From: a virus | IMG/VR virus record: IMGVR_UViG_3300036766_002288 | Span: 32,001-96,000 of that record | DNA: 64,000 nucleotides | Direction: 5' to 3' (one strand) | Shown: positions 26,377 through 62,349 of the stretch, in pieces | How positions within the stretch are numbered: position 1 is the first letter of the stretch | How the letters are laid out: every line of letters starts with the position of its first letter | Program-made: the position numbers and the translations under genes | The notes under the pieces: model-generated | What the model saw: the letters and a program-made list of their open reading frames with translations, nothing else | The model's database searches: none | Told to the model about the DNA's origin: nothing

Positions 26377-29300
26377 TCATATCGCTTTTTTGAAATCAAC
26401 TGGACACGCACCACCTGCACATTCAACATGCGCAAAATCTACGTCTTCTTCTAAAACCTTCTTGATCTTGTTCAAGGTATCTTCATATTCTGCCTTTGTA
26501 ACAGGTTGTTCTGGAAGATACTCATAACTAGATTTTTCTTCTTGGGGCATGATTGAACAACACTTAACCAATGGCTGATACTTCTGCACCGTCTTTGCAA
26601 AGTCCCTATAGCATACCTTGGCAGGCAAATACTTCAAAGTATAAGATATTTGATTAGCGGTATCCTTTTTCAAAAGCACGCCATTCTCATCGACACCATA
26701 CAACCAATACTTTTCCCCTAACATTATCCATTGATATTGTTCTTCTGGTGTAGCTTCTGCCGCTGTAACTAACTTGTTGCCCATGCCTAATTCAACAATG
26801 ATAGGCATTGTCGGAAAGCCTACTATAGTTGTATTCTGGTACTTTTTAAGTTCTCTAATTGGATATCCAGCCTTCTTGTATGTCTGAATGAGTGGGTCAT
26901 TACTACTGAATTGCACCCATCTCATGAACCATAACATTGAAGGTAAGTGCCACGCCTCTGTAAGCCCGAATAATTTTGAATTAGTTCCTGCTGGCTTTAA
27001 GGTTGTGTCTGTATGTGGCGGGGACATACCATATTTCTTTGAGTAAATCTCTGCCTCTTCCTGAACTGCCCTTTTGAATCTGGCCAAAGTCATCCAGAAG
27101 GCTTTAGATTTTTCCTCATCAATTAAATCTCTAAATCCTAACTTAAAGAACTTCCATGCAAATTCATGAATGCCAGTCATGCCAACACCAATTCTGTTGG
27201 TACGTAGTACCTCTTTCTTGTAAAGAGCATCCATTGTATTAACGCGAATAAGTGCCCTGGCAACTGCTCTAAACGCTTCTTCAGCTTCATCTAGACTGTC
27301 GGCATGGAATGGCACCAAATCACCAATGGTACAGTATGCTCCAAATAATGCGATTGCTATCTCGCCACAGTTATGTGCCCTTATGCCATTTGCATCAAAT
27401 TCATGCACAGTTTCAACACCACAGTCATAAACATCTTCATCGCCAATATGTTCAATAGATTCAATCTTGGCAACAAAGTTTTCCTTATAAATACCACGCT
27501 CAATAGAATTGATAGCAGCATTCAAAGCCGATGCTTTATCAGGCTCACGAAACCCTATTAAATCTGAAAACTGCAAAAGATTATCTTTACTAATGTGCAA
27601 TTCGTGAGACGGTTGGCACCAATACAATTTTTCTCCACCATTACCATCAGGCATTTTCTTGTAACCAGCTTCTTTTCTATCTTTGTAAACAGAAGATATA
27701 ATGCCCAATCTTGAAAGCATTCTTTGTATCGTATAGAGTCTTGGTAAATTAGACTGTGAAAGGCGCACACTTATACCTTTGTTTTTATTTTTACAAACAG
27801 TACCGTCCGCGTCGAACAATCCACCTAGCAATCCGCAGTAAAAATTACTGCCCATTTCTTCAACGGATTTCAACAGATTTTTAGTCAATGGCTCTAGCAA
27901 TGGTTCAGCTAACTTGTTTAATGCAACACAACTAATCGTTCTGCTGTCGTTAATTTCGTTTAATTGACCGCCTTCAAAATTAGCCTTAACCTTCATGTCT
28001 AGCGACTCAATACATTTCAAGGTCGCATCTATCATGTGATCTTTATTCTCACCCCAGAATCTTAAATAAGTGCAATATTTTTCTGGATTAAATCCACCAT
28101 CACCAATTATTTCACCAATCAACCACCCTTCGCCAAAAGTGCCATTGCCATCCCATCGAACATTACGCTGATTGGCAAGAACTAAATGATCGCCTATATT
28201 CAAATCTTTTACTTCAACCCATGAATGCTCATAGTTATAGCCACCATGCAATTTTGAACGTTTGTTTTTCTCAACCAATAATGGATGATTATCAGTTGCC
28301 TTCAAAGTATAGCCACGATTCGTCTTAATCAGATACACGGGCTTGCGACCTGTCTTCCAAAATCCAGAGGCATTGAATGATTTGCCATTGACGATAGCAT
28401 TAAATGGCTTGTTGATTAAATCAGCAACTTGTCTTGGACCATCAGATGTTTGCACCCATGTATCTGCTGTGACACAAGGATTACAGATCATGTAATACTG
28501 TTTTTTCAATGCTTTGCGTAGCAGCCGATTCATGTAAAGATTGGTATCGTCATTAAGCTGATACTTCTTACTACCAATTAAATCACCTTTAGAAAGTTCT
28601 TCTAACCCTTCACGATTCTCATTTAATTTATCGACGTTAATTAGTCCAGGCTCACCAGTGCTGTCTGCATAAGCTGCTGATGTAACTAATTTGAAAACTT
28701 TTCTGGCGTGCTTGGCAAGTGGAGTATGATAATCTGGATTGCTTCTTTTCAACTCTATTAGTTTCCAGAATTCCTTATCAACCATTACGCTGTTGTTGGA
28801 ACTCCATAAGAACCCATTGGGTTTAACAACGTAGCCTTCTCTTAGTTCTATTATTTCTTCAACACTCTTGTCGTAATATTCAATTGGACGCTTAATGGTG
28901 ATGAAGTCGAAAACTGTTACGTCTTTCCAGAACTTAGTGGACATTCTTGCCGCACGTCTTGCCCCACCTACGAGGACACATTCTGCGAAATAGTGGTCAA
29001 TATACATCGTTTGCATGAACGGCGTAAGTCCTGCGCCCTTGAGGGTCAAAGCCTTATAAAATGCATTCATTAAAGGAACGGGACCACTTGCTGGCCTATT
29101 TTGCATCCCTTTGATTGGGGTGCCCTTCGCTCTCACCTTAGAAAAATCTAGAATTAGTAGTTTATCTTTGTGTATTTTCTCAAACGCGGCATTTTCCCAT
29201 ATCTCTAATGCCTTTGCCCAACCTTCTCTAGTATCTTCAACGACATGCCATAATGTATCCTTGCCGCTACCATATTTATGTTTTGCATCCCGCACAGACT

Positions 29301-29739
29301 CATGTGCCATATAGTCATAGTCTGGGTGCGATTCATCTATTACACAACGTACATTTGGGGCATTATCCCAATTTACGAGCATGATATCATCATCATAGGA
29401 ACGGCCAACACCAGAGCCGTTCATTAACAAATAGAACAATGCAAAACTTGTAGCACTAGTAGAACAGTTTGTAAAAACTTCAATATTACGATTTGGTTGT
29501 GTTTCATCACCATGTTGCAGGTGCCTGCCGCTCATCAATATGGTGGCTTTTGATAGGTGCTTATAAAGAACTTTGTATTCTTGCTCTTGTTCTTCTTTTG
29601 TCCTGCATAATAAGGAATTGCCTAAAGCAACACGATGAGCAACGTCATCCCAACTCTCCCATTTGCCATTAGCTTTTTTTCTTAAAATGGTACGCTCTGC
29701 GACCGCCTGGCCCATACCAGGGTGAAAATTCTTCGACAT
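26377..29739 (-). CDS. nrdJ: class II (B12-dependent) ribonucleotide reductase containing an intein
   Basis: FTNCS, VLVGGARRAA, GEPGLIN, NP|CGEI, TLKPAGT; no small subunit adjacent. Confidence 0.88.
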   Translation of the reverse strand: MSKNFHPGMGQAVAERTILRKKANGKWESWDDVAHRVALGNSLLCRTKEEQEQEYKVLYKHLSKATILMSGRHLQHGDETQPNRNIEVFTNCSTSATSFALFYLLMNGSGVGRSYDDDIMLVNWDNAPNVRCVIDESHPDYDYMAHESVRDAKHKYGSGKDTLWHVVEDTREGWAKALEIWENAAFEKIHKDKLLILDFSKVRAKGTPIKGMQNRPASGPVPLMNAFYKALTLKGAGLTPFMQTMYIDHYFAECVLVGGARRAARMSTKFWKDVTVFDFITIKRPIEYYDKSVEEIIELREGYVVKPNGFLWSSNNSVMVDKEFWKLIELKRSNPDYHTPLAKHARKVFKLVTSAAYADSTGEPGLINVDKLNENREGLEELSKGDLIGSKKYQLNDDTNLYMNRLLRKALKKQYYMICNPCVTADTWVQTSDGPRQVADLINKPFNAIVNGKSFNASGFWKTGRKPVYLIKTNRGYTLKATDNHPLLVEKNKRSKLHGGYNYEHSWVEVKDLNIGDHLVLANQRNVRWDGNGTFGEGWLIGEIIGDGGFNPEKYCTYLRFWGENKDHMIDATLKCIESLDMKVKANFEGGQLNEINDSRTISCVALNKLAEPLLEPLTKNLLKSVEEMGSNFYCGLLGGLFDADGTVCKNKNKGISVRLSQSNLPRLYTIQRMLSRLGIISSVYKDRKEAGYKKMPDGNGGEKLYWCQPSHELHISKDNLLQFSDLIGFREPDKASALNAAINSIERGIYKENFVAKIESIEHIGDEDVYDCGVETVHEFDANGIRAHNCGEIAIALFGAYCTIGDLVPFHADSLDEAEEAFRAVARALIRVNTMDALYKKEVLRTNRIGVGMTGIHEFAWKFFKLGFRDLIDEEKSKAFWMTLARFKRAVQEEAEIYSKKYGMSPPHTDTTLKPAGTNSKLFGLTEAWHLPSMLWFMRWVQFSSNDPLIQTYKKAGYPIRELKKYQNTTIVGFPTMPIIVELGMGNKLVTAAEATPEEQYQWIMLGEKYWLYGVDENGVLLKKDTANQISYTLKYLPAKVCYRDFAKTVQKYQPLVKCCSIMPQEEKSSYEYLPEQPVTKAEYEDTLNKIKKVLEEDVDFAHVECAGGACPVDFKKAI
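27370..28476 (-). mobile_element. 369-aa intein with LAGLIDADG endonuclease
   Basis: starts CVTADTWV, ends VYDCGV...AHN followed by extein Cys; LIGEIIGDG and LGGLFDADG motifs. Confidence 0.92.
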
Positions 29740-31836: not shown

Positions 31837-32876
31837 ATTAATTCCTTAATACAGGTTATGCCAATTTCAATTAATTTTGTCTTATCAAGGTCGCCTGTGT
31901 CAGACTCCTTAGCATAAGTCTCAATCATTTCATCTTCTTTGTTTAAAATTGCTTTTGCATTTTGCACGACCTGTTTTTGATCGACTTTCATTTTTGGGCG
32001 AATCTCTAAAGTGCCTGGCTTTTTTTCCTGAATACTCTTCCTAATGTCAATCAAGTCCGTCGTATTAGCAGCTGTGTTCAACCTGACAAAATTTTTCTCA
32101 ATATCAAAGTTAGCGATATTGTCATCATCTGCGATTAAATGTTTTGGACTGAAATTATTTACAACGTACTCCTTTTTGCCAGAAGCTGGGTCGTAAATAA
32201 TGATGTGCTTTTCTTGAAAAGCTTCGCTAAAAGTTAATTGTAATGGCGACCCAATATATTCGACATTGCCTAGCTTCTGTTCTCCATGATAATGCCCTAA
32301 AAACACCTGCTCCCAATGTGTGAATAATTCAGGCCCAACTTTAACCATGTCCCCATCATGCTCTAAAATAACATCAGCCAAACTACTAAAAAGACCATGT
32401 AGCTCAGCACCATGTACCGCTAAATGACCTACTAATAATTTGTTTTGATTTTTTTCTAGAGTTTTTAAATGTTCGATTGGATTGCGAACGAATGGGAGAA
32501 AATCAATGATATTCCCAGCAATTTCTATTGAACATGCTTTGTCAATAATGGTTACTTTTGGCAACGCCGAAAAAGGCAAAACACTATTAATGTCCCATTT
32601 GTCTTGGAACCAAAGATCGTGATTGCCTAGAAGTAACCAAAGATTTATGCTGCCATCACAGTATTTTGACAATATGTCAAATGTTAAACAATAGGTGTGA
32701 ATATCTATTTTTTGGCGATCTTGAAGCAAATCGCCAGCAAAAACAATGTCCTTGATACCCCTGGTCTTAGCAGTTTCAAACACCCACTCTAAAGCTTTCA
32801 GACAATCTTGGAGTCGTTCAAAACTCCTCTTGTGCGTGTAAATGTGTGAATCTGCAAAAAGTAATATTTCACTCAT
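31833..32876 (-). CDS. Mre11-like nuclease (T4 gp47/SbcD)
   Basis: ADSH, AGDL, GNHD, FLGHYH, YIGSP motifs. Confidence 0.92.
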   Translation of the reverse strand: MSEILLFADSHIYTHKRSFERLQDCLKALEWVFETAKTRGIKDIVFAGDLLQDRQKIDIHTYCLTFDILSKYCDGSINLWLLLGNHDLWFQDKWDINSVLPFSALPKVTIIDKACSIEIAGNIIDFLPFVRNPIEHLKTLEKNQNKLLVGHLAVHGAELHGLFSSLADVILEHDGDMVKVGPELFTHWEQVFLGHYHGEQKLGNVEYIGSPLQLTFSEAFQEKHIIIYDPASGKKEYVVNNFSPKHLIADDDNIANFDIEKNFVRLNTAANTTDLIDIRKSIQEKKPGTLEIRPKMKVDQKQVVQNAKAILNKEDEMIETYAKESDTGDLDKTKLIEIGITCIKELI

Positions 32877-41003: not shown

Positions 41004-41567
41004 ATGGAAAGAACTGAACTAACTGATGGCGGATACATATTGTATCAACCAGATTTCTATAATACAAAAATCGCAGATAATCTCTTCAACTTGTTACTAG
41101 ATGTTCCCTGGAAACAAGAGACATTTTCTTGGGGCAAATTTCCTAGACTCACATCTTATTACGCCGATGAAGGTGTAAAATATGAATATTCTGGAGTCAC
41201 CCACAAAGCTTTGGTATGGCCAGGAATTCTCTCAGCGGTAAAAGATAAAACTCAACAAGTTGTTGGTGAGAAATTTAACAGTCTATTGTTAAATTTCTAC
41301 AGGGATGGTGCGGATTCTATTGGCTGGCATTCAGATGATGAGAAAGAATTAGGAATAAATCCAATCATTGCATCTATTTCATTGGGTGCTGAAAGAACAT
41401 TCAATGTTAGGCACAAAAGAACTAAGGAAAAGTGGTCTATAGTTTTAAAGAATGGAAGTTTAATAGTTATGGGTGGTACAATGCAACATCATTGGCAGCA
41501 TTGTGTGCCAAAGACAACCAAGCCAGTTTTTGCAAGAATAAACCTTACTTTTAGGAACATTTTATGA
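41004..41567 (+). CDS. alkB: AlkB-family 2OG-Fe(II) dioxygenase (ALKBH2/3-like)
   Basis: NFYRDGADSIGWHSDDE, SISLGAER, HCVPK...RINLTFR. Confidence 0.92.
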   Translation: MERTELTDGGYILYQPDFYNTKIADNLFNLLLDVPWKQETFSWGKFPRLTSYYADEGVKYEYSGVTHKALVWPGILSAVKDKTQQVVGEKFNSLLLNFYRDGADSIGWHSDDEKELGINPIIASISLGAERTFNVRHKRTKEKWSIVLKNGSLIVMGGTMQHHWQHCVPKTTKPVFARINLTFRNIL

Positions 41568-41962
41568 GTTCATACAAAGAAGCATGTCAAGTTACAAAAG
41601 AGACTGATAAGTTATTTACAGCATACGATTTTCATCCAAGTGATTTGGTTGTAATTGGTCATGAAGAAGGCACACAGTTAGTGTATAAAAGTGCCTTCTT
41701 AAAAGAATGGAAAGATTACATCTTCGTTTTCACAGAGCATCATGGGACTTTAGTTTACCATAAATACGATTTATCTTATTATAATCAATACACTACCAAG
41801 GAAATAGAAAAGCTAAAATTCACATTTCATAAGGATATATGTCAAGACTGCAAAATTGAATTCAAAGTTGAAGATTTAAGGTATGGCTATCATCCAGAAC
41901 GATATGAGGAAATCAGCATTCTTTGTAATGGTTGCTATGAAAAGGCTTGTGACTTACCCTGA
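41564..41962 (+). CDS. hypothetical protein with C-terminal CxxC pairs
   Basis: ORF track. Confidence 0.6.
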   Translation: MSSYKEACQVTKETDKLFTAYDFHPSDLVVIGHEEGTQLVYKSAFLKEWKDYIFVFTEHHGTLVYHKYDLSYYNQYTTKEIEKLKFTFHKDICQDCKIEFKVEDLRYGYHPERYEEISILCNGCYEKACDLP

Positions 41963-44900
41963 TACCTTTTTAATATAAATGCCATTCGTTGCTAGCTCAA
42001 AAGTTAAATACTCAATATATTCTTTAGCTGATTTTAGATTCCAACCCAATGCTTCTCTAGCTAGTTTTATTGCTTGAATCTTATCTCCCTGTTCTATTTT
42101 GCTCTCCATGTCCATTATTGTTTTTTTGTCTAAAAACGGCTTGCCAGGCATATCATGGTAGTGCTGAACCATTATTTCATGTGCTTTTTCTTGAGATAAA
42201 GGAGAAATGGCATAAATTGTTTTAGCATCAAAATATTTTTGTATTGCTAATTCTTTTAAATAGGTTTTTTTGATATCAAACAATTGATTTGGACTATAAT
42301 TAGCACCTAATGCGGCGTTGACCTTAGTTAAAATATCTTCAATTGGATAACTAGGGTTGTAATATTTAGTAGAAATAATTGCCCTCGCTACTTTCAAATC
42401 CATTGGGAAAAGGAATGCCTTCAATGGATTAAAGCTGTTTTTCAAAGAATCAATAATTTTAGCACCTGTATCTATGGGAGCAGGAGCAGTTGCTAGTTCC
42501 ATATCATCTGCTTCGATAGCATAACTACCGCCACTAGGAAACTTAACACTATAACCATGTTCAAAATCTGATTGTGGAATTTTGTAAACAATTGTTCCAA
42601 CCATACCTTTGTGATAACCATTTATGATCTTAACTGGATCGCCATTTTTGAATTCTTTTTTAGGTTTTGAAGACAACTCAATATTCACCACCTTAATAGG
42701 TGCCTCGCCACCATCATCAAACTTAATATGCACCATGTTATCTTTGTAAGCGCCTGTATAAGTTTTAGTTATATGACCAGTCAGACCTGCATACATTCCA
42801 TCTTTGACTTTTACAAAGTCTCCGACTTTAAAATCCTTTTTAGACCCCGCCGCCACTGGTGCTACTAATTGCAGATTGCCTGCATGTACCAAATATTCAT
42901 ATCCAGCACCGCCAGACTTTATTTTATAAAGATTATCACCTACAATTTTCTCTTTAACGACGCCAGTTATTCCATTATGTTCACCGCCAGTAACTTTAAC
43001 GGTTGCCCCAATTTCAAACGTTTTTGACTGACCCTTCTTGCCTGTTATTTCGAACTGATTTGGTGCTAAAATTTGATCTTGTTTGCCACCGAAGGCAATG
43101 TCTAAAGCAATAGTATAATTTGTTCCGTGGTTCACCTTAACGGTGCCTGTAAAACCTGCAAAACTACCATCTATTACCTTAACAATGTCCCCCACTTCTG
43201 GGGTGGGCGATTTATCTAATTCGATATCATTTTTATAGAAAAGATACGGGGAATCGGATGACCCTAATGTAACCATATAATTCCCATTTTCAGTCTTGTG
43301 CTTAAATTTACCTTTTTTGCCTGTGTGCAAACCATTTTTAACTTTAATAGGATCGCCTGCCTTAAAATCTTCTTTTTCCTTAACAGAATCATCCTTCTTC
43401 AAATCCCCCTGAGAGAAATACAAATTTTGCTTTTTACTATCAAGGGGACTTTCTACGGCGACAATCCACACACCTTCAGTTGAAGTTGAGGTTACAATCT
43501 CACCTTTCTTGCCCTTGTAATCACCATTAGTTATGATTACAGGGTCGCCTACTTTATATGATGGTCTTGTTTTTTCATCCTTTTGCAAATCGTAGTTTGA
43601 ATAGGGAATTAGGTTTACAAGACCAAGATCGACTTGATAGGGATATGGGTCTTCGGCGGCTTTTATATTTTTGATAAAACCTTTCATGCCTTTATGACTT
43701 CCATATTTGATAGTAACATGGTCGCCTACTTTAAGGCCCAGAAGCGACTTGCCACCGCTAGCGGAATCGTCTTTCTTGAAGTAATCTGAGGAATACCATT
43801 GTTCATCGGCTTCCCCACCATGCGGCATCGTTACAAGAACACTCCATGAATGCCCATTATAACTTTTGAGAACACCTTTTGAGCCGTTATAAGTGCCATG
43901 AGTGATGATTACATGGTCCCCTACCTTATTCCCTTTTTCGTCTGGGAAGCTGCTGGCTTTCTTTTCAACAACTTCAAATCTATGTCTCTTAAAAGCCTTT
44001 GTAGGCTTATCTGCGAACTCGACGTTGAAATAAGGAAAATCGTATTTGTAAATCTTATCTATGACGGTTCCAGTTTGGCCAACATATCCACTAGAACCAC
44101 CTATAATCTTAACCTTGTCACCAATATCTACATCAGAAGGATGTGGGGGCTGATTAATTGGGGTTCCTGTGTATGTCGGCTGTGGAACAGGTTTACCCTT
44201 ATTAACCTTGGCCCAATATTCTTGATTAACTTGTCCCATAGAGTATGGGGCTGGTCCATAATTGCCAGTTACAGGGCTTGATACTGATTGATTTATAATA
44301 TGTTGACTAGCATATTGTTCTGGGGTAATATCTTTAGGCTTACTTTCCCAATAAGTATCATTAGGATAGTTTTTTTCATGTTCAGCTTTCTTTTTCTCAT
44401 ATTGAGATTGCTGCATCTGATTATATATCTCTGCCTTTTTCTTTAGAATTTCAGGCCAATCTTTCTCAAAGTCCAAAAAAGTTTTGCCTGTCTTGAGCTT
44501 AATACCAATTTTGGCCACTTCCCGCATTGAAGGACTAATATGCTCAAACATTTCGTGGGGAGAAACTAGATCACGTTTATGGTCAAGTGATTTCTGAATC
44601 CAATCATACTTATTATCTTTCCTATAACTTTTTAATTTAGTGAATACACTACCAGTATTATGTTGTAAGTCGTAAACATGGTCAATGTAGGCGATTATCT
44701 TATTTGGCGTTTCGGCATCATTTAGGTGTGTCCAACCATCAGCAATACCTCCCCAGGCTTTGCCACCATATGAACTACCCCATTTTGCATTATAAAATAG
44801 CCAACTGGCTAGCTTTGCCCATTCTTCATCTGTTCCACCTGCATGTTTCAGAGCTTTGTATGAAGTGGTATAACCATCATCACTGTTTTTAGCTGTAGTC

Positions 44901-45454
44901 GGTATATGGATACGATCCATTATTTCTGCTGTTTCTGGATTTTGTAAATTTCTTAAAGCGAGTGTGTAATTCCTTAGTAAACTTGCTTCTTTTGGACCGA
45001 GTTCCTTTTTCACTCTTTCAATTAAAAGTTTAGGCTTATTTCTTTCACTATCATATAAGTGTCTTAATTCGGCGGAAATAGAAAACATAACTGCTTCCAA
45101 TAGTTCCTTTTTAAGGGCTGGCAGTAGTTTATTGCCTACTTCATATAGAGCATGATAGAATTTGTCCTCTACGGTCATGGACATATCACCATAATGTCTC
45201 GTATCTGGTGGAAGTCCTTTTTCTTCTCTTTCTTTATTCTGAAGTGCATTAGCTTTTTCTGTATCTTCTCCACCAAAATCCATTGGTTTTAGATACATGT
45301 GAATACCAGGCGGAAGAAGATATTCGAGCATGTAAAAGTCGTACATTTGCTGTTGTCTATCTTCTGGGACATGGTATGTCCATGAACCAAATACACCTTC
45401 TAGTATTGGATTATAATCTTTTTTATTTAACCAATTAGCGAACTTGTCTAGCAT
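41954..45454 (-). CDS. ~1170-aa protein with nine KOW repeats and C-terminal ribosomal L7/L12-CTD-like motif
   Basis: repeated (K/E)xGDxVxIxxGx(Y/H)xGxxG; GDKIQAIKLAREALGWNLKSAKEYIE; ATG 45454 preceded by ATAAATA. Confidence 0.8.
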   Translation of the reverse strand: MLDKFANWLNKKDYNPILEGVFGSWTYHVPEDRQQQMYDFYMLEYLLPPGIHMYLKPMDFGGEDTEKANALQNKEREEKGLPPDTRHYGDMSMTVEDKFYHALYEVGNKLLPALKKELLEAVMFSISAELRHLYDSERNKPKLLIERVKKELGPKEASLLRNYTLALRNLQNPETAEIMDRIHIPTTAKNSDDGYTTSYKALKHAGGTDEEWAKLASWLFYNAKWGSSYGGKAWGGIADGWTHLNDAETPNKIIAYIDHVYDLQHNTGSVFTKLKSYRKDNKYDWIQKSLDHKRDLVSPHEMFEHISPSMREVAKIGIKLKTGKTFLDFEKDWPEILKKKAEIYNQMQQSQYEKKKAEHEKNYPNDTYWESKPKDITPEQYASQHIINQSVSSPVTGNYGPAPYSMGQVNQEYWAKVNKGKPVPQPTYTGTPINQPPHPSDVDIGDKVKIIGGSSGYVGQTGTVIDKIYKYDFPYFNVEFADKPTKAFKRHRFEVVEKKASSFPDEKGNKVGDHVIITHGTYNGSKGVLKSYNGHSWSVLVTMPHGGEADEQWYSSDYFKKDDSASGGKSLLGLKVGDHVTIKYGSHKGMKGFIKNIKAAEDPYPYQVDLGLVNLIPYSNYDLQKDEKTRPSYKVGDPVIITNGDYKGKKGEIVTSTSTEGVWIVAVESPLDSKKQNLYFSQGDLKKDDSVKEKEDFKAGDPIKVKNGLHTGKKGKFKHKTENGNYMVTLGSSDSPYLFYKNDIELDKSPTPEVGDIVKVIDGSFAGFTGTVKVNHGTNYTIALDIAFGGKQDQILAPNQFEITGKKGQSKTFEIGATVKVTGGEHNGITGVVKEKIVGDNLYKIKSGGAGYEYLVHAGNLQLVAPVAAGSKKDFKVGDFVKVKDGMYAGLTGHITKTYTGAYKDNMVHIKFDDGGEAPIKVVNIELSSKPKKEFKNGDPVKIINGYHKGMVGTIVYKIPQSDFEHGYSVKFPSGGSYAIEADDMELATAPAPIDTGAKIIDSLKNSFNPLKAFLFPMDLKVARAIISTKYYNPSYPIEDILTKVNAALGANYSPNQLFDIKKTYLKELAIQKYFDAKTIYAISPLSQEKAHEIMVQHYHDMPGKPFLDKKTIMDMESKIEQGDKIQAIKLAREALGWNLKSAKEYIEYLTFELATNGIYIKKVSG

Positions 45455-47005: not shown

Positions 47006-47341
47006 ATGAGTCGATACGGATTTGATTTAGATGGAACTCTTGATGTTCCTTCCATAGCACAACTCGCCAATGATTTATATGACGCAGGACACGAAATATA
47101 CATAGTCACAGGTGGGTTTGGCGATCATGGAGAATGGACAATTTCTGAGCGCGAAAAGAAATTAGCCAGACTTGGTGTTAAATACACAGAAATCATTCGT
47201 TGTTTAAAACCCTCTTTTGAAGAAATTGGTAAAGAGAAAGGTCGTATTTGCAAAGAAAGAAAAATTTCTTTGTTATTTGACGACTCAGAAACTTATATCC
47301 AGCAATCTAAAGGGGCGGTCCAATGTCTGAAAGTGATCTAA
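47006..47341 (+). CDS. small HAD-like hydrolase
   Basis: GFDLDGTLD and LLFDDSE motifs. Confidence 0.65.
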   Translation: MSRYGFDLDGTLDVPSIAQLANDLYDAGHEIYIVTGGFGDHGEWTISEREKKLARLGVKYTEIIRCLKPSFEEIGKEKGRICKERKISLLFDDSETYIQQSKGAVQCLKVI

Positions 47342-47553
47342 AACAACTTATTCTTGAAAAAGGCGGCGTAGCTGCCATTAAACATTACCGTGAAATCAAT
47401 AAATGCAATTTAAAAGAAGCAGTCCAAGCAATAGATTCACTTGGCCCATTGCCACGTATCTTTAAATCAACTACTCCATGTCCAGATTGTGGCAAATTGC
47501 TTAGAACAGATTTAGCAAAACAATGTTTTGAATGTGGAAAGGATTGGCATTAA
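47323..47553 (+). CDS. L7/L12-CTD-like motif plus Zn ribbon
   Basis: GGVAAIKHYREINKCNLKEAVQAID; CPDCG...CFECG. Confidence 0.55.
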   Translation: MSESDLKQLILEKGGVAAIKHYREINKCNLKEAVQAIDSLGPLPRIFKSTTPCPDCGKLLRTDLAKQCFECGKDWH

Positions 47554-50039: not shown

Positions 50040-50241
50040 AATAGAAGTATACCTTAAAGGTTGGATTACTATTAGGGAATTGAACGCTTGGCTTGCTCCA
50101 ACTGGCTGGGATATCCATTTGTGGGGCACGCCCGAGGAACAAGAGATGTGTTATTCCACTTCTCTATACATATGGGAATACAAATATTGGCCCATAAAAG
50201 AGTTTAGGGAGAAGTTAGCTAAGATAATTAACAAAAATTAG
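50011..50241 (+). CDS. small hypothetical protein
   Basis: ORF track. Confidence 0.55.
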   Translation: MTFKEELTYKIEVYLKGWITIRELNAWLAPTGWDIHLWGTPEEQEMCYSTSLYIWEYKYWPIKEFREKLAKIINKN

Positions 50242-53200
50242 GTCACGCATTTTCTAGTTATAGAAAGAATAATTTCCAAACTTACATCAGATACGCCACC
50301 TTTAAACGCCAGTCTAGTTATAGCTATAGTCTTAAACACTTGCGTTGTTCCTGCCTTAACTGATAAAACGGCATTTGGATTATCATTTATTTTAACTGAA
50401 ACGTCGTCCGTGCCATTGTTATTAATTTGGGTAAATTTAGAATACCCGCAATCTATAACAATGAAATTCGAAGCAAATGTATCAGTCGTCAAAACCATAT
50501 AGTCAGCATACACACGCTCAGGTGGTGGTTTACTTAGTATGTCCACAAACGCAATGGATGGCGGAAGTGCAAGTGTCGTAAAGTTGTCCCAATAATCACA
50601 ATCGGCAAACGTTGTATTGTCCACAGCTTCACGATTGATAAGATTAGCACCCGCATTATACATCGTTCTTTGCTTACTTGGCTGGAATATCTTACCTGTA
50701 ATCGGGTTTATGTCCAAATAACCCTGTTCTCCAACACGATTTAAATGTACATTATATAATCCACAAACAATTTCATTTGGAGTAGGCGGTGGAGGAGGTG
50801 GTGGAGAAGAAGCTGGATAAAATATCCTTACTAATCCACTGCCACCATTGCCACCATTGCCACCTCCACCACCTCCACCACCTCCACCTGCTGGAAAGCC
50901 ACTAAAACCATCTCCACCAGAGCCACTACCGCCTGGGCCACTAGGATAACCGCCACCGCTTATACCAGGACTTGTTCCTGAACCATCTCCCCCTGAACCT
51001 AATAAACCAGCACTGCCACCGCCCCCACCGCCAGCACCCGTTATACCATCGGCACCATTTCCACCACCGTTAGCTATATCTCCTATACCAGTGGGAGCGC
51101 CAGGAGCGCCAGAAGTTCCACTGGCATTACCGCCAGCTGGGGCAGTAAGTAATGGTGTAATACCATCTGTATCATAAAATACGGTAGTGCCACTTGAGGC
51201 AACAGTGATAAAATAAACTTCGCCAGGAACTACATCAATAGTAATTTGTGAAAAAGCACCACCACCGCCACCGCCACCGCCTGGACCACTTAAACCTGCA
51301 CCGCCAAGGCCACCATTGCCAGGAGTTCCGCTACCACCACCATTAGTGCCACCTGCGCCAGGAGAATCAGTAGTAGAATTACCACCGTTTCCACCAGCAC
51401 CAGCACCACCAGCGGCACCGCCACCGCCTGCACCACCACTACTGGTAGCACTACCGCCTGCACCACCACTATAATTAACATCTCCTGTACCATCAGCTGC
51501 GGAGCCACCTAGTCCCCCTGCCCCGCCGACTGCACCATTTCCCCCAAAAGCTTGGGCTAATGGAGTAATTCCGTTTGTATCAAAAAATGTAGAAGTACCG
51601 CCCGCGCCGCCTACGGTTCCGCCAGCACCTACTTGAATATTATAATCTTGGGAGCCTTCTAAGCCTACATCAAATGTCGTTGTAGCATACGCACCACCGC
51701 CACCACCGCCACCTGCTGCTCCACCACCGCCCCCACCGATAACTTCTACAGTTATGGTCCAGCTGCCAGGAGGTATAGTAACTATATTAGAGCCTGGAGT
51801 TGTAAAAGTAAAAATAATAGGTGGGTCAAACCCATCAGTATAAGAAACAATCACAATGCCAGTAGCCCCATTGCCAGAAGTTCCGCCAAAAGCAGCACCA
51901 CCGCCACCACCACCAACAACATTACCATTAGCGCCATCACTGCTACCTCCACCACTGCCAGAGCTACCAACACCGCCTGGACCAGTTCCTTGAACAATTA
52001 TGGAATTAATTCCAGGAGGAACAGTCCAAGTAGTTGAACTAACAATATTATTAAAATTTTGCGGGTTACTATTATTGGTTGTTATTTGTAATATGCCTTG
52101 TGCCCCAAGACCACCTGCCTGTATTGTGAATGGCGCGCCACCACCACCACCACCACCACCACCTGGGATGACGCCTGGAAGACCTATGGCCCCAGCAAGT
52201 CCACCACCGCCACCAGCACCAGGAATAAGACTACCGCCACCAACGGCGCTTCCGCCGTCGCCGCCAGCACCAGTATCCCCAGCGATACCAACGTTACCAC
52301 TAATGCCTGAAAACACTGAGGAATTACCTATTGAATAATATGCATTACCACCAGCACCAGGCAACGCCATTTGAGCTTGACTACCAACCGCAGCATAAAG
52401 TTTAAAATCGTTTAAAGTTATTGTTGGCAAATATGGTTCAGGAACATCAACAAATGCAGTTCCCCCAGAAGGTTGTGCAGGAACATACACTGAGTATGTT
52501 CTACCTGGGATAACAGATAGTATTGATTCAGCATAAGCTCCACCACCGCCGCCACCGCCGCCACTATTATTGTCACCACTAGCTCCACTACCACCATGAC
52601 CTATCGCTTGTATAGTAGCACCAGTTTGGTTTGCACCAGGAGTCCAAGTACGGGAACCTACCTGAGTAAACACCAATGGATTAGTAGGGTCAGCATAAGT
52701 TAATCTAATGAAACCTGGACCGCCAAGGACGCCGAGACCTGTAATACCGCCACCACCTCCACCACCGCCAAAACTATATCCATCTATATTAGCTGGGGGA
52801 AATCCGCCATTTAGACTTCCTGCTCCACCATTACCACCATTTTGGCCAGGATCGCCACCATATAAACCACCAATATTGTTAGTAGTAGTATGACCAATGC
52901 CAACTTCACCAGCAGAACCGCCACCACCTCCACCAATGCCGCCACTTTGATTAGCACCACCGCCGCCGTCGTATGTTATATCGCCTATAGAACTTGAGGC
53001 TAAACCGCCACCACCTCCTATAGTGCCAGCGGCATTAACACCAGCATCTGCTTTAACTAATTCATCAAGACCATTAGTATCATAGAAAATACTATTTGGA
53101 TTGCCACCAAACTGTCCAATATGAACAAAGTATGTTGCCCCCGAAGTTACAGCGACAGTTTTAGCAGCATAGGCACCGCCACCGCCGCCGCCACCACCAG

Positions 53201-54821
53201 AGCCGATTGTATCTCCATCGCCACCTAATCCACCTATTCCTACTGCCTCAACAACTACGGATGTGACTCCTATTGGCGCAGTCCAAGTAAAATCATAAGT
53301 ATAAAAATTGGTAAAATTTAATTGGACTATTGAAGTTGGTGGTGGAGGTGCTGGTGGGCCGTTATATAATAATTGCACAAGACCATTAGCACCTGCACCA
53401 CCTGGGAAGCCATTAGCACCCCCGCCGCCACCGCCGCCATTAGTGCCAGAATTGCCAGGCAGTCCTGCATTACCACCATTACCGCCCGTGCCAGCTAACG
53501 TACCAAAGAAAGAACCTGGATTTCCACCGAAACCACCTGTTATGTTGTTTGATGGTTGACCACCCCAAGTGCCGCCGATATATGTAGTACCACCACTGGC
53601 ACCACCGCCTGAGCCTGGAATGAATATATTACCAGTGCCACCACCGTTACCGCCTGGACTAATATAAGTGCCTGTACAATTTGCTGGTACAGCAACACAA
53701 CCACCTGTCCCACCTGTAGTAGGGTTCCCTGCTGCTGCACCGCCACCAGATTGCACTAGTGGTGTAATGCCATTAGTGTCGAAAAAAGTAGTTGAAGCAC
53801 CAGGATTACCAGGGGTTCCACCTACACCAACAGTAATATTATAAGTTAGACCTGGCGTGGTCGCTACTACTCTTTGTGAATAAGCACCACCTCCACCACC
53901 AGAGCCTCCAACACCGCCAGAACCTGTACCACCACCACCTCCACCACCAATTGTCTGTACTACTACAGAAGAAACACCTGGGGGTGCAACCCACGGAGTT
54001 GGGGGACCGCCACCACCAAAAGTTTCTGTTGTTGCGGTAGGAAAATATGTTAAACGAATAACACCTTGCGCACCACTTTCGCCAAGTGAATTAAAATGTT
54101 GACTTATTGCACCGCCGCCACCGCCACCACCATAAAAACTGCCTGGGGTTCCTGGTATGCCTGTAAGTGATCCTGGGCCACTACATGCTGGGAAAGCCCC
54201 CTCATATATTCCACCAGCGCCAGTTCCACCATCTCCACCTAAACTACCACCCTTTGAGCCGCCAGCACCGCCAATACCACCAAAATCACCCGAAACAGCG
54301 CCTCCATCTTGACCTACATGCCCTAATCCTGCATTATCTGCGGCACCACCACCGCCGCCGCCGCCTGGACCGATACAAGATGCACCACCTGTAGTGCCAC
54401 CACCACTTCCACCACTTCCACCACTTCTCCTAATATCACCTAGACAGTCTACATCAAGACCACCAGCACCAGCTGGCGGTCCTGTTCCAAAAGCATCGCC
54501 GCCACTATGACCTCCTACAGATACTACTTTAGGATTTGATGCTATGTCTGAAAAAACAGTGTAACCAAATGCCCCTGAACCACTACACCCGCCCCTGCCC
54601 GCATTTTTAAATCCATTATATACATCGCCTGGTATTACATCCACTACACTAGCACTATAAGCACCACCGCCGCCACCGCCACCGCTATTGGCACTGCTTA
54701 AATAAGAACCGCAACCACCACCACCACCAGGGCCAATACATTCAACAAAAACACTAATTACATTAGCTGGAACTGTCCACTGATCGGTTTCATCTGGAGT
54801 CGATAAAAGTAAAACTGTCAT
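50238..54821 (-). CDS. 1527-aa Gly-rich multi-repeat protein (tail fibre/adhesin-like)
   Basis: about seven units starting W-T-x-P-x-G-V-x-S-x-x-V and ending G-x-I-x-L-x-Y, poly-Pro linkers, non-repetitive C-terminal domain. Confidence 0.8.
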   Translation of the reverse strand: MTVLLLSTPDETDQWTVPANVISVFVECIGPGGGGGCGSYLSSANSGGGGGGGAYSASVVDVIPGDVYNGFKNAGRGGCSGSGAFGYTVFSDIASNPKVVSVGGHSGGDAFGTGPPAGAGGLDVDCLGDIRRSGGSGGSGGGTTGGASCIGPGGGGGGGAADNAGLGHVGQDGGAVSGDFGGIGGAGGSKGGSLGGDGGTGAGGIYEGAFPACSGPGSLTGIPGTPGSFYGGGGGGGAISQHFNSLGESGAQGVIRLTYFPTATTETFGGGGPPTPWVAPPGVSSVVVQTIGGGGGGGTGSGGVGGSGGGGGAYSQRVVATTPGLTYNITVGVGGTPGNPGASTTFFDTNGITPLVQSGGGAAAGNPTTGGTGGCVAVPANCTGTYISPGGNGGGTGNIFIPGSGGGASGGTTYIGGTWGGQPSNNITGGFGGNPGSFFGTLAGTGGNGGNAGLPGNSGTNGGGGGGGANGFPGGAGANGLVQLLYNGPPAPPPPTSIVQLNFTNFYTYDFTWTAPIGVTSVVVEAVGIGGLGGDGDTIGSGGGGGGGGAYAAKTVAVTSGATYFVHIGQFGGNPNSIFYDTNGLDELVKADAGVNAAGTIGGGGGLASSSIGDITYDGGGGANQSGGIGGGGGGSAGEVGIGHTTTNNIGGLYGGDPGQNGGNGGAGSLNGGFPPANIDGYSFGGGGGGGGITGLGVLGGPGFIRLTYADPTNPLVFTQVGSRTWTPGANQTGATIQAIGHGGSGASGDNNSGGGGGGGGAYAESILSVIPGRTYSVYVPAQPSGGTAFVDVPEPYLPTITLNDFKLYAAVGSQAQMALPGAGGNAYYSIGNSSVFSGISGNVGIAGDTGAGGDGGSAVGGGSLIPGAGGGGGLAGAIGLPGVIPGGGGGGGGGAPFTIQAGGLGAQGILQITTNNSNPQNFNNIVSSTTWTVPPGINSIIVQGTGPGGVGSSGSGGGSSDGANGNVVGGGGGGAAFGGTSGNGATGIVIVSYTDGFDPPIIFTFTTPGSNIVTIPPGSWTITVEVIGGGGGGAAGGGGGGGAYATTTFDVGLEGSQDYNIQVGAGGTVGGAGGTSTFFDTNGITPLAQAFGGNGAVGGAGGLGGSAADGTGDVNYSGGAGGSATSSGGAGGGGAAGGAGAGGNGGNSTTDSPGAGGTNGGGSGTPGNGGLGGAGLSGPGGGGGGGGAFSQITIDVVPGEVYFITVASSGTTVFYDTDGITPLLTAPAGGNASGTSGAPGAPTGIGDIANGGGNGADGITGAGGGGGGSAGLLGSGGDGSGTSPGISGGGYPSGPGGSGSGGDGFSGFPAGGGGGGGGGGNGGNGGSGLVRIFYPASSPPPPPPPTPNEIVCGLYNVHLNRVGEQGYLDINPITGKIFQPSKQRTMYNAGANLINREAVDNTTFADCDYWDNFTTLALPPSIAFVDILSKPPPERVYADYMVLTTDTFASNFIVIDCGYSKFTQINNNGTDDVSVKINDNPNAVLSVKAGTTQVFKTIAITRLAFKGGVSDVSLEIILSITRKCVT

Positions 54822-61170: not shown

Positions 61171-62349
61171 ATGGACAGAATTAAGACTACTCCCCGTAAA
61201 GATTGGCAAAAAACCGTAGAGTCACAGGGACTTTACTACCACACCATTCCGAATCATCAACCTACCTTTAACCCTGCAAATCCAGAAAACACTAACCCTC
61301 AAGAAAAAGACCGTGTTTATTGGGATGAAAGTGCATATTATCAATTCTCTTCCAGAGAAGTCGATGAAATTGAAGAATGCACTTATTGGTTAAACAAAAT
61401 CTGTCTTGAAGCAGTCGATCACATCATAGAAAACAATCTTTTCGACAAAGTTGGTGTGCCCCCTGCATTCGTAGAATGGATTAAGCAAAGTTGGGAAAAC
61501 GACGAACATACCATCTATGGCAGATTCGATCTTTGGTATAACGGCAACGAACCGCCTAAGCTCTTGGAATACAATGCTGATACTCCTACAGGGCTACTTG
61601 AAGCATCAGTCGTGCAATGGCATTGGATGAAGGATACACAAGAGTTTTTCGATCAATATAACAGCATCCATGAAAAATTGATTGAAATCTTCAAGACTCT
61701 GAAGAATGAATGGGAGGGTAGGTTCTACTTTGCCGCCATTGCTCAGAATCTTGAAGATTATATGACAGTGACCTATCTCCGTGATGTAGCAATACAAGCA
61801 GGTTGGGACACTGAATATATCAACATGGAGGACTTAGGTTGGGATAAAACTCGGGAAAGATTCGTTGATGCTAAAGAACGAATGATCTTTAATTGTTTCA
61901 AGTTATATCCTTGGGAATGGATGTTAAAAGAAGAATTCGGTCAGCATTTATTGAAGAACCGTTGTCGTTGGATGGAAGCCCCTTGGAAGACTCTCTTAAG
62001 CAACAAGGGTATTTTGCCAATTCTATCAGACCTTTATCCTAAGAGTGAATACTTGTTGAAAGCTTCGTTTGAACCGCTAAACTGCAAGTATGTCAAGAAG
62101 CCAATTCATGGGAGAGAAGGTGCTAATTTAGAAGTTATTGAAAAGGATAAGACGCTCATCAAGACAGAAGGGCCTTATACTGGACCTGTTGTCTATCAAG
62201 AATATAAACAATTGCCTAATTTTGATGGCAATTATCCAGTAATTGGTAGTTGGATGGTCAATGGCTATGCGTGTGGTATAGGGATTAGGGAAGATGTTAA
62301 TCCAATAACTCAAAACACTAGTAGATTTGTCCCACATGTTTTCTCGTAA
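61171..62349 (+). CDS. glutathionylspermidine synthase family ATP-grasp protein (YgiC/YjfC-like)
   Basis: YGRFDL, LLEYNADTPTGLLEAS, FKLYPWEW, LSNKGIL, KKPIHGREG. Confidence 0.92.
   Translation: MDRIKTTPRKDWQKTVESQGLYYHTIPNHQPTFNPANPENTNPQEKDRVYWDESAYYQFSSREVDEIEECTYWLNKICLEAVDHIIENNLFDKVGVPPAFVEWIKQSWENDEHTIYGRFDLWYNGNEPPKLLEYNADTPTGLLEASVVQWHWMKDTQEFFDQYNSIHEKLIEIFKTLKNEWEGRFYFAAIAQNLEDYMTVTYLRDVAIQAGWDTEYINMEDLGWDKTRERFVDAKERMIFNCFKLYPWEWMLKEEFGQHLLKNRCRWMEAPWKTLLSNKGILPILSDLYPKSEYLLKASFEPLNCKYVKKPIHGREGANLEVIEKDKTLIKTEGPYTGPVVYQEYKQLPNFDGNYPVIGSWMVNGYACGIGIREDVNPITQNTSRFVPHVFS

Follow-up and report, generated by a model that had tools for sequence, protein, structure and literature searches.

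A nine-KOW protein of a T4-like huge phage with a capsid-targeting-like leader, a candidate for head-packaged cargo

What does a phage do with a protein of 1,166 residues in which nine KOW repeats stand in tandem? The question is raised by a gene in a stretch of 64,000 nucleotides, positions 32,001 to 96,000 of the IMG/VR record IMGVR_UViG_3300036766_002288, which we call the window; the record itself is 187 kb long and about 37% complete. An earlier note on this DNA had suggested that the protein could be an injected scaffold that links RNA polymerase (RNAP), RNA and ribosomal or GTPase factors. Our analyses show that the protein consists of five parts, a 19-residue leader, a helical domain of about 315 residues (the N-domain), a flexible linker, nine diverged KOW-type repeats and a helical C-terminal domain. 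With moderate confidence, we favor its being modular capsid cargo, an internal or ejection protein that a T4-like huge phage would package in its head and release together with its DNA.

The reading frame is open on the minus strand only. Its longest form begins at TTG 45481, but we take the ATG at 45454 as the true start because the homologues all start MLxKF and a protein identical over 1,166 aa, for which PF26011 is the precomputed family, is on record, encoded on a contig of 590,099 bp. The genome is thus that of a phage of about 590 kb, and the nearest named genome is the uncultured phage LR756511, of 595 kb. The parts of the gene are given below in window coordinates, with the basis of each assignment in brackets.

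41954–45454, minus strand: whole KOW gene, 1,166 codons plus stop, the stop at 41954–41956 (list of open reading frames (ORFs) and translation)
45398–45454, minus strand: leader MLDKFANWLNKKDYNPILE, residues 1–19, candidate capsid-targeting sequence ending I-L-E before G (family conservation)
44450–45397, minus strand: conserved all-helical domain of the phrog_20946 family, residues 20–335 (alignments and AlphaFold2 (AF2) model)
44123–44449, minus strand: long helix and P/Q-rich flexible linker, residues 336–444 (AF2 model and sequence)
42455–44122, minus strand: nine KOW-type repeats, residues 445–1000 (Pfam KOW, KOW4_SPT5 and SH3_KIN17_C; hidden Markov model (HMM) of the repeats)
41957–42454, minus strand: helical C-terminal domain, residues 1001–1166 (AF2 model)
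42008–42088, minus strand: L12 alpha4/alpha5-like helix-turn-helix KIQAIKLAREALGWNLKSAKEYIE, residues 1123–1149 (PF00542, sub-threshold)

The argument for packaging begins at the N-terminus. The leader reads MLDKFANWLNKKDYNPILE, with GVFG after the putative cut, and in the family defined by the N-domain, members that begin with this domain share a leader of one pattern: M, an aromatic-x-x-aromatic-hydrophobic element, a variable stretch, [L/I/V/F]-x-E, and then G, I, V or K. In short form it is M..F..W...[L/I]xE followed by G. Of 143 such domain-first members, 127 carry the aromatic-xx-aromatic plus [LIVMF]xE element, against a background of 29% in random 22-residue windows. In the T4 capsid-targeting sequence (CTS), MKTYQEFIAE, residues 4 and 7 serve targeting and residues 8 and 10 processing, and the protease gp21 cuts after L/I-x-E (PMC8442874, PMC9026906), the rule used for our leader test (PMC9026906). 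To judge from its residues, the leader resembles the T4 CTS, and its end resembles the sites at which the prohead protease of T4 cuts; short-leader members such as MGFKEWLNLLE, continuing IFG, come near in form to the T4 sequence. The AF2 model gives residues 9–21 a predicted local distance difference test (pLDDT) score below 50, that is, predicts them to be flexible or disordered. The leader is missing from the stand-alone homologues of the siphophages SIO-2 and RcZahn, and among the ORFs of the 187-kb record the KOW gene alone clearly has one. Downstream of the leader, [LI]xE sites are depleted, 4 being present where 9 are expected (P about 0.05), and residues 147–1065, a span picked post hoc, hold no such site. 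The earlier note had called the start capsid-targeting-like, and the family-wide conservation of the leader supports that description.

The genomic position of the relatives points in the same direction. At three IMG/VR loci (L006, L011 and L053), family genes, often two in tandem, lie directly upstream of a Peptidase_S77 gene, a gene of 276–331 aa that occupies the scaffold position, and the gene for the Gp23 major capsid protein; at four more (L042, L049, L052 and L008), they lie at most 10 kb from the protease gene, the Gp23 gene or both. The protease itself adjoins family genes at L006, L011, L042, L049, L052 and L053. LR756511 also encodes an S77 protease, at 526 kb, and the window carries tail and baseplate genes of T4 type. 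A further line of evidence comes from the company that the N-domain keeps. Besides stand-alone proteins of 280–350 aa, it is found N-terminally in proteins of 400–1,300 aa with variable partner modules (KOW, SH3_15, NHase_beta_C, ankyrin, OB, ProQ-C-like and a PHROG labeled DNA-binding protein), as two or three copies within one protein, and inside proteins of 2,000–4,150 aa with GNAT domains and beta-solenoid regions, whose genes adjoin those for DUF932, PAPS-reductase-like and DUF5906 proteins. Embedding in giant multidomain proteins is the pattern of polyvalent proteins, which are thought to travel with the DNA (PMC5512222). The head-cargo reading is favored because the conserved leader, absent from the siphophage homologues, parallels that of T4, because relatives place the family genes beside protease and capsid genes, and because the N-domain follows the polyvalent pattern; that the partner modules are binders, that [LI]xE is depleted beyond the leader and that the tail genes are of T4 type argues for it as well.

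On this reading, the leader would act like the T4 CTS, its amphipathic F5..W8 helix bringing the protein into the prohead core, and an S77 protease of the gp21 type would cut after I17-L18-E19. The mature protein would then stay in the head beside the packaged DNA, with its KOW array, which is mildly basic, and its helical C-terminal domain serving as tethers to nucleic acid or protein, or as a beads-on-a-string spacer, and at infection it would leave together with the DNA. The conserved N-domain would be the effector, perhaps an enzyme or a ligand binder whose target is nucleic acid or nucleotide-linked.

Several observations weigh against packaging and have to be set beside these. Both presence in the head and cleavage of the leader are predictions, and since [L/I]xE is a short motif, the leader could instead have a structural or regulatory part in the domain that follows. 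A search of the 187-kb record, which covers about 37% of the genome, found neither an S77 protease nor a Gp23 gene, and both the KOW gene and its LR756511 counterpart are located outside the head module; the relatives that show adjacency to head modules belong to a small number of related clades and do not count as independent evidence. With an isoelectric point (pI) of 8.8, the KOW region is unlike the highly basic internal proteins of T4. Upstream of the gene, CATAAATA is merely a near-match to the T4 late promoter, and exact copies of TATAAATA show no enrichment in the window (8 seen, 7.2 expected).

The main rival is a non-packaged intracellular factor, which we consider possible though doubtful. 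The protein would then be a cytoplasmic, nucleic-acid-associated enzyme or regulator with a catalytic N-domain, its KOW array and C-terminal domain holding DNA or RNA and its leader forming part of the fold or a regulatory peptide. The surroundings of the gene suit such a role: it sits among genes of DNA and RNA metabolism (an AlkB-like oxygenase, an HNH endonuclease and tRNAs), its synteny with the AlkB-like gene is retained in relatives L066 and L067, and the stand-alone homologues of siphophages lie between a PPDK-like kinase, DSP-PTPases and a DNA polymerase. The repeats match PHROGs annotated as transcription antiterminator and as MotB-like regulator, and T4 MotB, whose KOW and OB domains bind DNA non-specifically, provides a precedent (PMC7827196). 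Left unexplained, however, are the family-wide leader, predicted to be disordered and ending in [L/I]xE, the location of family genes, in several T4-like relatives, next to those for prohead protease and capsid, and the occurrence of the N-domain within giant proteins of polyvalent type.

Whether packaged or not, the protein is best conserved in its N-domain. The earlier note had set apart an N-terminal helical domain with YGGKAWGGIADGW...HNTGSVF, and this is borne out: identity to the orthologue P0003 (1,156 aa) is 73% there, as compared with 45% in the C-terminal domain and 32–40% in most KOW units. Thirteen positions, D39, F40, Y41, E129, W234, D258, Y261, Q264, H265, K273, W285, L290 and K293, are invariant across 36 diverse sequences, and the polar ones among them suggest an active or ligand site. 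It is because of these invariant D, E, H, Q, K and W residues and the high orthologue identity that we regard the N-domain as a possible enzyme or ligand binder. Its AF2 model is all-helical and of good quality (pLDDT 84, predicted template modeling (pTM) score 0.79) and has no match among solved folds, the best hit being E 0.34 for Foldseek against the PDB and Z 4.9 for VIA against 48,161 chains; a PDB profile search gave no match, the ESM Atlas no usable match and BFVD only unnamed viral proteins. The ideas of an aGPT-Pplase, an HD-domain, a HEPN or an ADP-ribosylglycohydrolase protein were dropped, as no profile or fold match supports any of them. The family is nonetheless large: a profile search of 1.84 billion representatives returned 2,936 proteins at E <= 1e-3 and 605 at E <= 1e-30, the counts being of cluster representatives at 50% identity, and phrog_20946, a family with no assigned function, was matched by 58 of the 61 members scanned.

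The roles of the two halves could also be reversed within a packaged protein: the N-domain would be a MuF-like adaptor for packaging or anchoring that binds scaffold, portal or inner core, and what is delivered as cargo would be the KOW array with the C-terminal domain. A conserved N-terminal domain followed by hypervariable C-terminal partners does mirror the layouts of MuF-toxin and polymorphic-effector proteins, and MuF fusions are described among polyvalent proteins (PMC5512222). We nevertheless find this arrangement unlikely, for the N-domain also stands alone and also lies deep within giant proteins, it occurs in siphophages in a kinase and phosphatase neighborhood away from head genes, and with so many invariant polar residues it seems more likely to have an active or ligand site.

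The siphophage neighborhood is itself worth describing. In the cultured phages Vibrio SIO-2 and Rhodobacter RcZahn, the gene for the stand-alone homologue has that of a PPDK_N/PEP-utilizers kinase on one side and those of DSP-PTPases on the other, close to the DNA polymerase gene (the clusters being at L004:4130–9374 in RcZahn and L005:4516–9433 in SIO-2), and the SIO-2 protein VPEG_00063, annotated as thymidylate synthase, has BLAST matches to the RcZahn PTPases at E about 1e-9. A DSP-PTPase neighbor recurs in 9 of 56 family loci. The kinase is absent from the 187-kb record and from the metagenomic loci, and a link between it and the N-domain is a lead at most.

The linker that joins the N-domain to the repeats starts with a helix (residues 333–362 in the AF2 model), falls to low pLDDT from about residue 390 and to below 50 at residues 425–440, and aligns to the orthologue P0003 with 47 gap columns. 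Beyond it, the KOW array is unambiguous. The nine tandem motifs that the earlier note had counted all stand: units at residues 445–511, 512–576, 577–635, 636–699, 700–754, 755–815, 816–877, 878–937 and 938–1000, each of 55–67 residues, align end to end, and an HMM made from them finds all nine again. Pfam KOW (PF00467) scores 66.5 bits (E 1.2e-18; cut-off 22.3 bits) with five stretches individually significant, KOW4_SPT5 (56.3 bits) and SH3_KIN17_C (33.7 bits) both pass their own cut-offs, and the matches include KOW, KOW2, KOW4 and KOW5 of Spt5. The units are old copies: their mean pairwise identity is 26% and no tandem repeat is seen at the DNA level across the array. They also line up, in order, with eight units picked out by the repeat HMM in P0003. 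No cleavage-type motif was found in the linkers between units, and the array would therefore remain one piece. As the earlier note had stated, multi-KOW arrays are atypical of phages, and one of this size is very rare: a search of 5.8 billion proteins with residues 445–1000 recovered P0003 and P0035 and no others. The latter (L065:7470–10859), with about twelve KOW-like repeats after an unrelated N-terminal domain of 350 aa, represents a second phage multi-KOW type, and its gene is flanked by Zeta-toxin and ADP-ribosylglycohydrolase genes.

Tandem SH3-like barrels are also typical of the wall-binding modules of endolysins, and the earlier note itself had named cell-wall-binding domains as what the repeats might turn out to be. 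The protein would then be a wall-binding or lytic one, its SH3b-like repeats attaching to peptidoglycan. Sequence matches of the repeats in the PDB are weak throughout, and the best of them, the tandem barrels of Bacillus subtilis YdhK/DUF1541 (E 0.015, ahead of Spt5 at E 0.3 and uL24 at E 0.54), would agree with such a role. Against it, Pfam gave no match to SH3_3, SH3_4 or SH3_5, the bacterial SH3b families, and none to a lysozyme, amidase or peptidase family at E <= 1, KOW profiles far outscore other SH3-like families, and the N-terminus is hydrophilic, with neither a signal peptide nor a hydrophobic stretch. The assignment of the repeats as KOW-type, and not as bacterial SH3b domains, is supported, and a lytic function appears extremely improbable.

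KOW units of this kind bring NusG and Spt5 to mind, and the last part of the protein was the other reason for suspecting a link to transcription and translation. The AF2 model of residues 985–1166 has nine helices and no strands (pLDDT 88, pTM 0.81). The domain is confined to the family, where it is also present in P0003, P0004, P0014, P0009, P0016, P0018, P0008, P0020, P0167, P0042, P0055 and P0043, and a search for a shorter or stand-alone form found none. Foldseek gave no match to it and VIA middling helical ones (a RepB' helix bundle at Z 7.0 and small eukaryotic ribosomal proteins at Z 5.5–5.9), scores too weak for naming a fold, an attempt that was dropped; bL12 chains are absent among the matches listed from either program. 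The L12 likeness lies in the last two helices (model helices 141–152 and 156–172), where residues 1123–1149 match positions 10–36 of the 67-position PF00542 at 17.1 bits (E 0.0068), and at 20.7 bits in a genome scan, both below the cut-off of 25.9 bits. A profile of seven family C-termini aligned by hhalign with three phage bL12 proteins gave a probability of 23% over 27 columns. Over a core of 24 residues, the motif shares 11 identities with what we take to be the alpha4-alpha5 sequence of Escherichia coli L7/L12, among them the equivalents of V66, I69, K70 and R73, and the hairpin would thus presumably span the factor-binding helices of that protein. It is well kept in the paralogues P0014 and P0016 and degenerate in P0005, P0008, P0009 and P0011. 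Of the L7/L12-like tail claimed earlier, then, a two-helix motif of 27 residues stands, and the L7/L12 C-terminal domain does not: because of the sub-threshold Pfam score, the low hhalign probability over so few columns and the all-alpha model, the C-terminal domain is not an L7/L12 C-terminal domain, and the likeness is that of a short motif only.

L12-like sequences do occur elsewhere in these genomes. A 76-aa ORF at window positions 47323–47553 on the plus strand carries a second such hairpin, GVAAIKHYREINKCNLKEAVQAI, at 14.2 bits to PF00542, again below the cut-off, followed by a CxxC...CxxC tail resembling a zinc ribbon. Full-length bL12-like proteins of 131–134 aa matching PF00542 are encoded on the minus strands of relatives (L066:8231–8626, L067:5985–6386 and L068:7031–7435), where the bL12-like and RF-1/PCRF genes lie 2–8 kb from the family gene; the 187-kb record yielded no full bL12.

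How far, then, does the idea of a scaffold hold? In its full form, the injected protein would couple host RNAP, RNA and the ribosome or translational GTPases, with the KOW units as NusG/Spt5-like binders of RNAP or S10 and the C-terminal hairpin as a mimic of the factor-binding helices of L7/L12. The KOW profile match is genuine, the hairpin is shared with two paralogues and recurs in the 76-aa ORF, and the clade does invest in translation, having tRNA arrays here and, in L066–L068, genes for bL12 and RF-1 as neighbors of the family gene. Yet no NGN or NusG family is found among the Pfam matches of the protein, even at E <= 1, and since it has no NGN domain, the protein contains KOW domains without being a relative of NusG or Spt5; all KOW units except the first evolve fast, and the hairpin, degenerate in many members, sits in an all-helical domain that has no L12 beta-sheet. 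Moreover, sister proteins have the array replaced by unrelated modules, which argues for a variable binder or spacer and not for a dedicated bridge between RNAP and ribosome. Apart from the short motif and a KOW fold that is generic, nothing ties the protein to RNAP, the ribosome or GTPases, and we judge a scaffold quite unlikely. A version that keeps the protein in the head is more of a long shot: the KOW barrels and the L12-like hairpin of the packaged protein might dock on the RNAP and ribosome machinery, at NusG/S10 sites and translational GTPases, and so deliver a new-fold N-domain enzyme within the first seconds of infection, as a counterpart, in the form of a protein, to the takeover genes for tRNAs, release factor and bL12.

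The window also carries nucleotide-metabolism genes and ten Ser/Leu tRNAs. Scans for promoters, terminators and late promoters gave results at or under chance level and were uninformative. The following genes are worth recording, the last four lines referring to related loci in which a single protein combining DUF6267 with a cytidylyltransferase-like part (590–1,029 aa) is encoded immediately upstream of the family genes and head-protease module.

41004–41567, plus strand: AlkB-like 2OG-Fe(II) oxygenase, convergent with the KOW gene, a pairing also found in L066 and L067
23020–24657, minus strand: CTP synthase
26377–29739, minus strand: ribonucleotide reductase gene, split by an intein with a LAGLIDADG endonuclease domain
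50238–54821, minus strand: glycine-rich protein of 1,527 aa (Gly_rich_2), with weak matches to a tail-fibre-assembly PHROG and a GC content of 0.47–0.49, against 0.36–0.40 around it
61171–62349, plus strand: glutathionylspermidine-synthase-like protein
L006:3719–6808: DUF6267 + cytidylyltransferase-like protein
L011:4701–6878: DUF6267 + cytidylyltransferase-like protein
L053:6639–8882: DUF6267 + cytidylyltransferase-like protein
L012:127–1899: DUF6267 + cytidylyltransferase-like protein

Huge phages carry many large proteins with no assigned role, and our analysis defines around one of them a large phage family, built on a helical domain without a solved-fold match, whose domain-first members mostly begin with a T4-like leader and continue with interchangeable binder modules. 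Should the predicted role of the leader be right, T4-like huge phages would be delivering a widespread set of such proteins with their DNA, and the family would be a natural place to seek new host-takeover or anti-defence enzymes. The leader could also serve as a portable tag for loading proteins into large capsids, and a KOW array in a phage cargo protein would, if true, widen the known uses of KOW barrels.

Among known systems, the closest parallel is with the internal head proteins of T4. Like IPI, IPII, IPIII and Alt, the protein begins with a short leader in which two aromatic residues are spaced by three positions and which ends in L/I-x-E, and it shares with them a T4-like background, with relatives that have an S77 protease and family genes by those for protease, scaffold and capsid. 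The two differ in that the leader has 19 residues instead of the 10 of T4, that the protein is large and mildly basic where those of T4 are small and highly basic, and that the mature part has no sequence similarity to them; the delivery into the host with the DNA, proposed here by analogy, is predicted from sequence. KOW arrays of the nine-unit type are otherwise a trait of eukaryotic Spt5. With Spt5 and NusG, the protein has the KOW-type motif in common, and with Spt5 (5–7 units) the tandem arrangement; unlike them, it has nine units, no NGN, unrelated N- and C-terminal domains and a phage gene. T4 MotB is likewise a phage protein using a KOW-type barrel; unlike our protein, however, it is small, early and cytoplasmic, with one KOW and one OB domain and with neither leader nor array. 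The helix-turn-helix of 27 residues (I.AIK..R..TG..LK.AK..) is similar to alpha4-alpha5 of the bL12 C-terminal domain but differs from bL12 in its all-alpha context, in lacking the beta-sheet, helix alpha6 and the N-terminal L10-binding domain, and in falling below the Pfam cut-off; the genuine phage bL12 proteins of relatives are products of separate genes. With the polyvalent proteins (Iyer et al. 2017, PMC5512222), finally, the comparison is one of layout. No LPD, MuF or other described polyvalent-protein domain was detected in the window protein, and instead of several enzymatic effector domains it combines one conserved domain with binder repeats; the N-domain nevertheless recurs in giant GNAT-bearing proteins in neighborhoods of the mobile-element type, and what the two have in common is the idea of a protein that enters the cell with the DNA.

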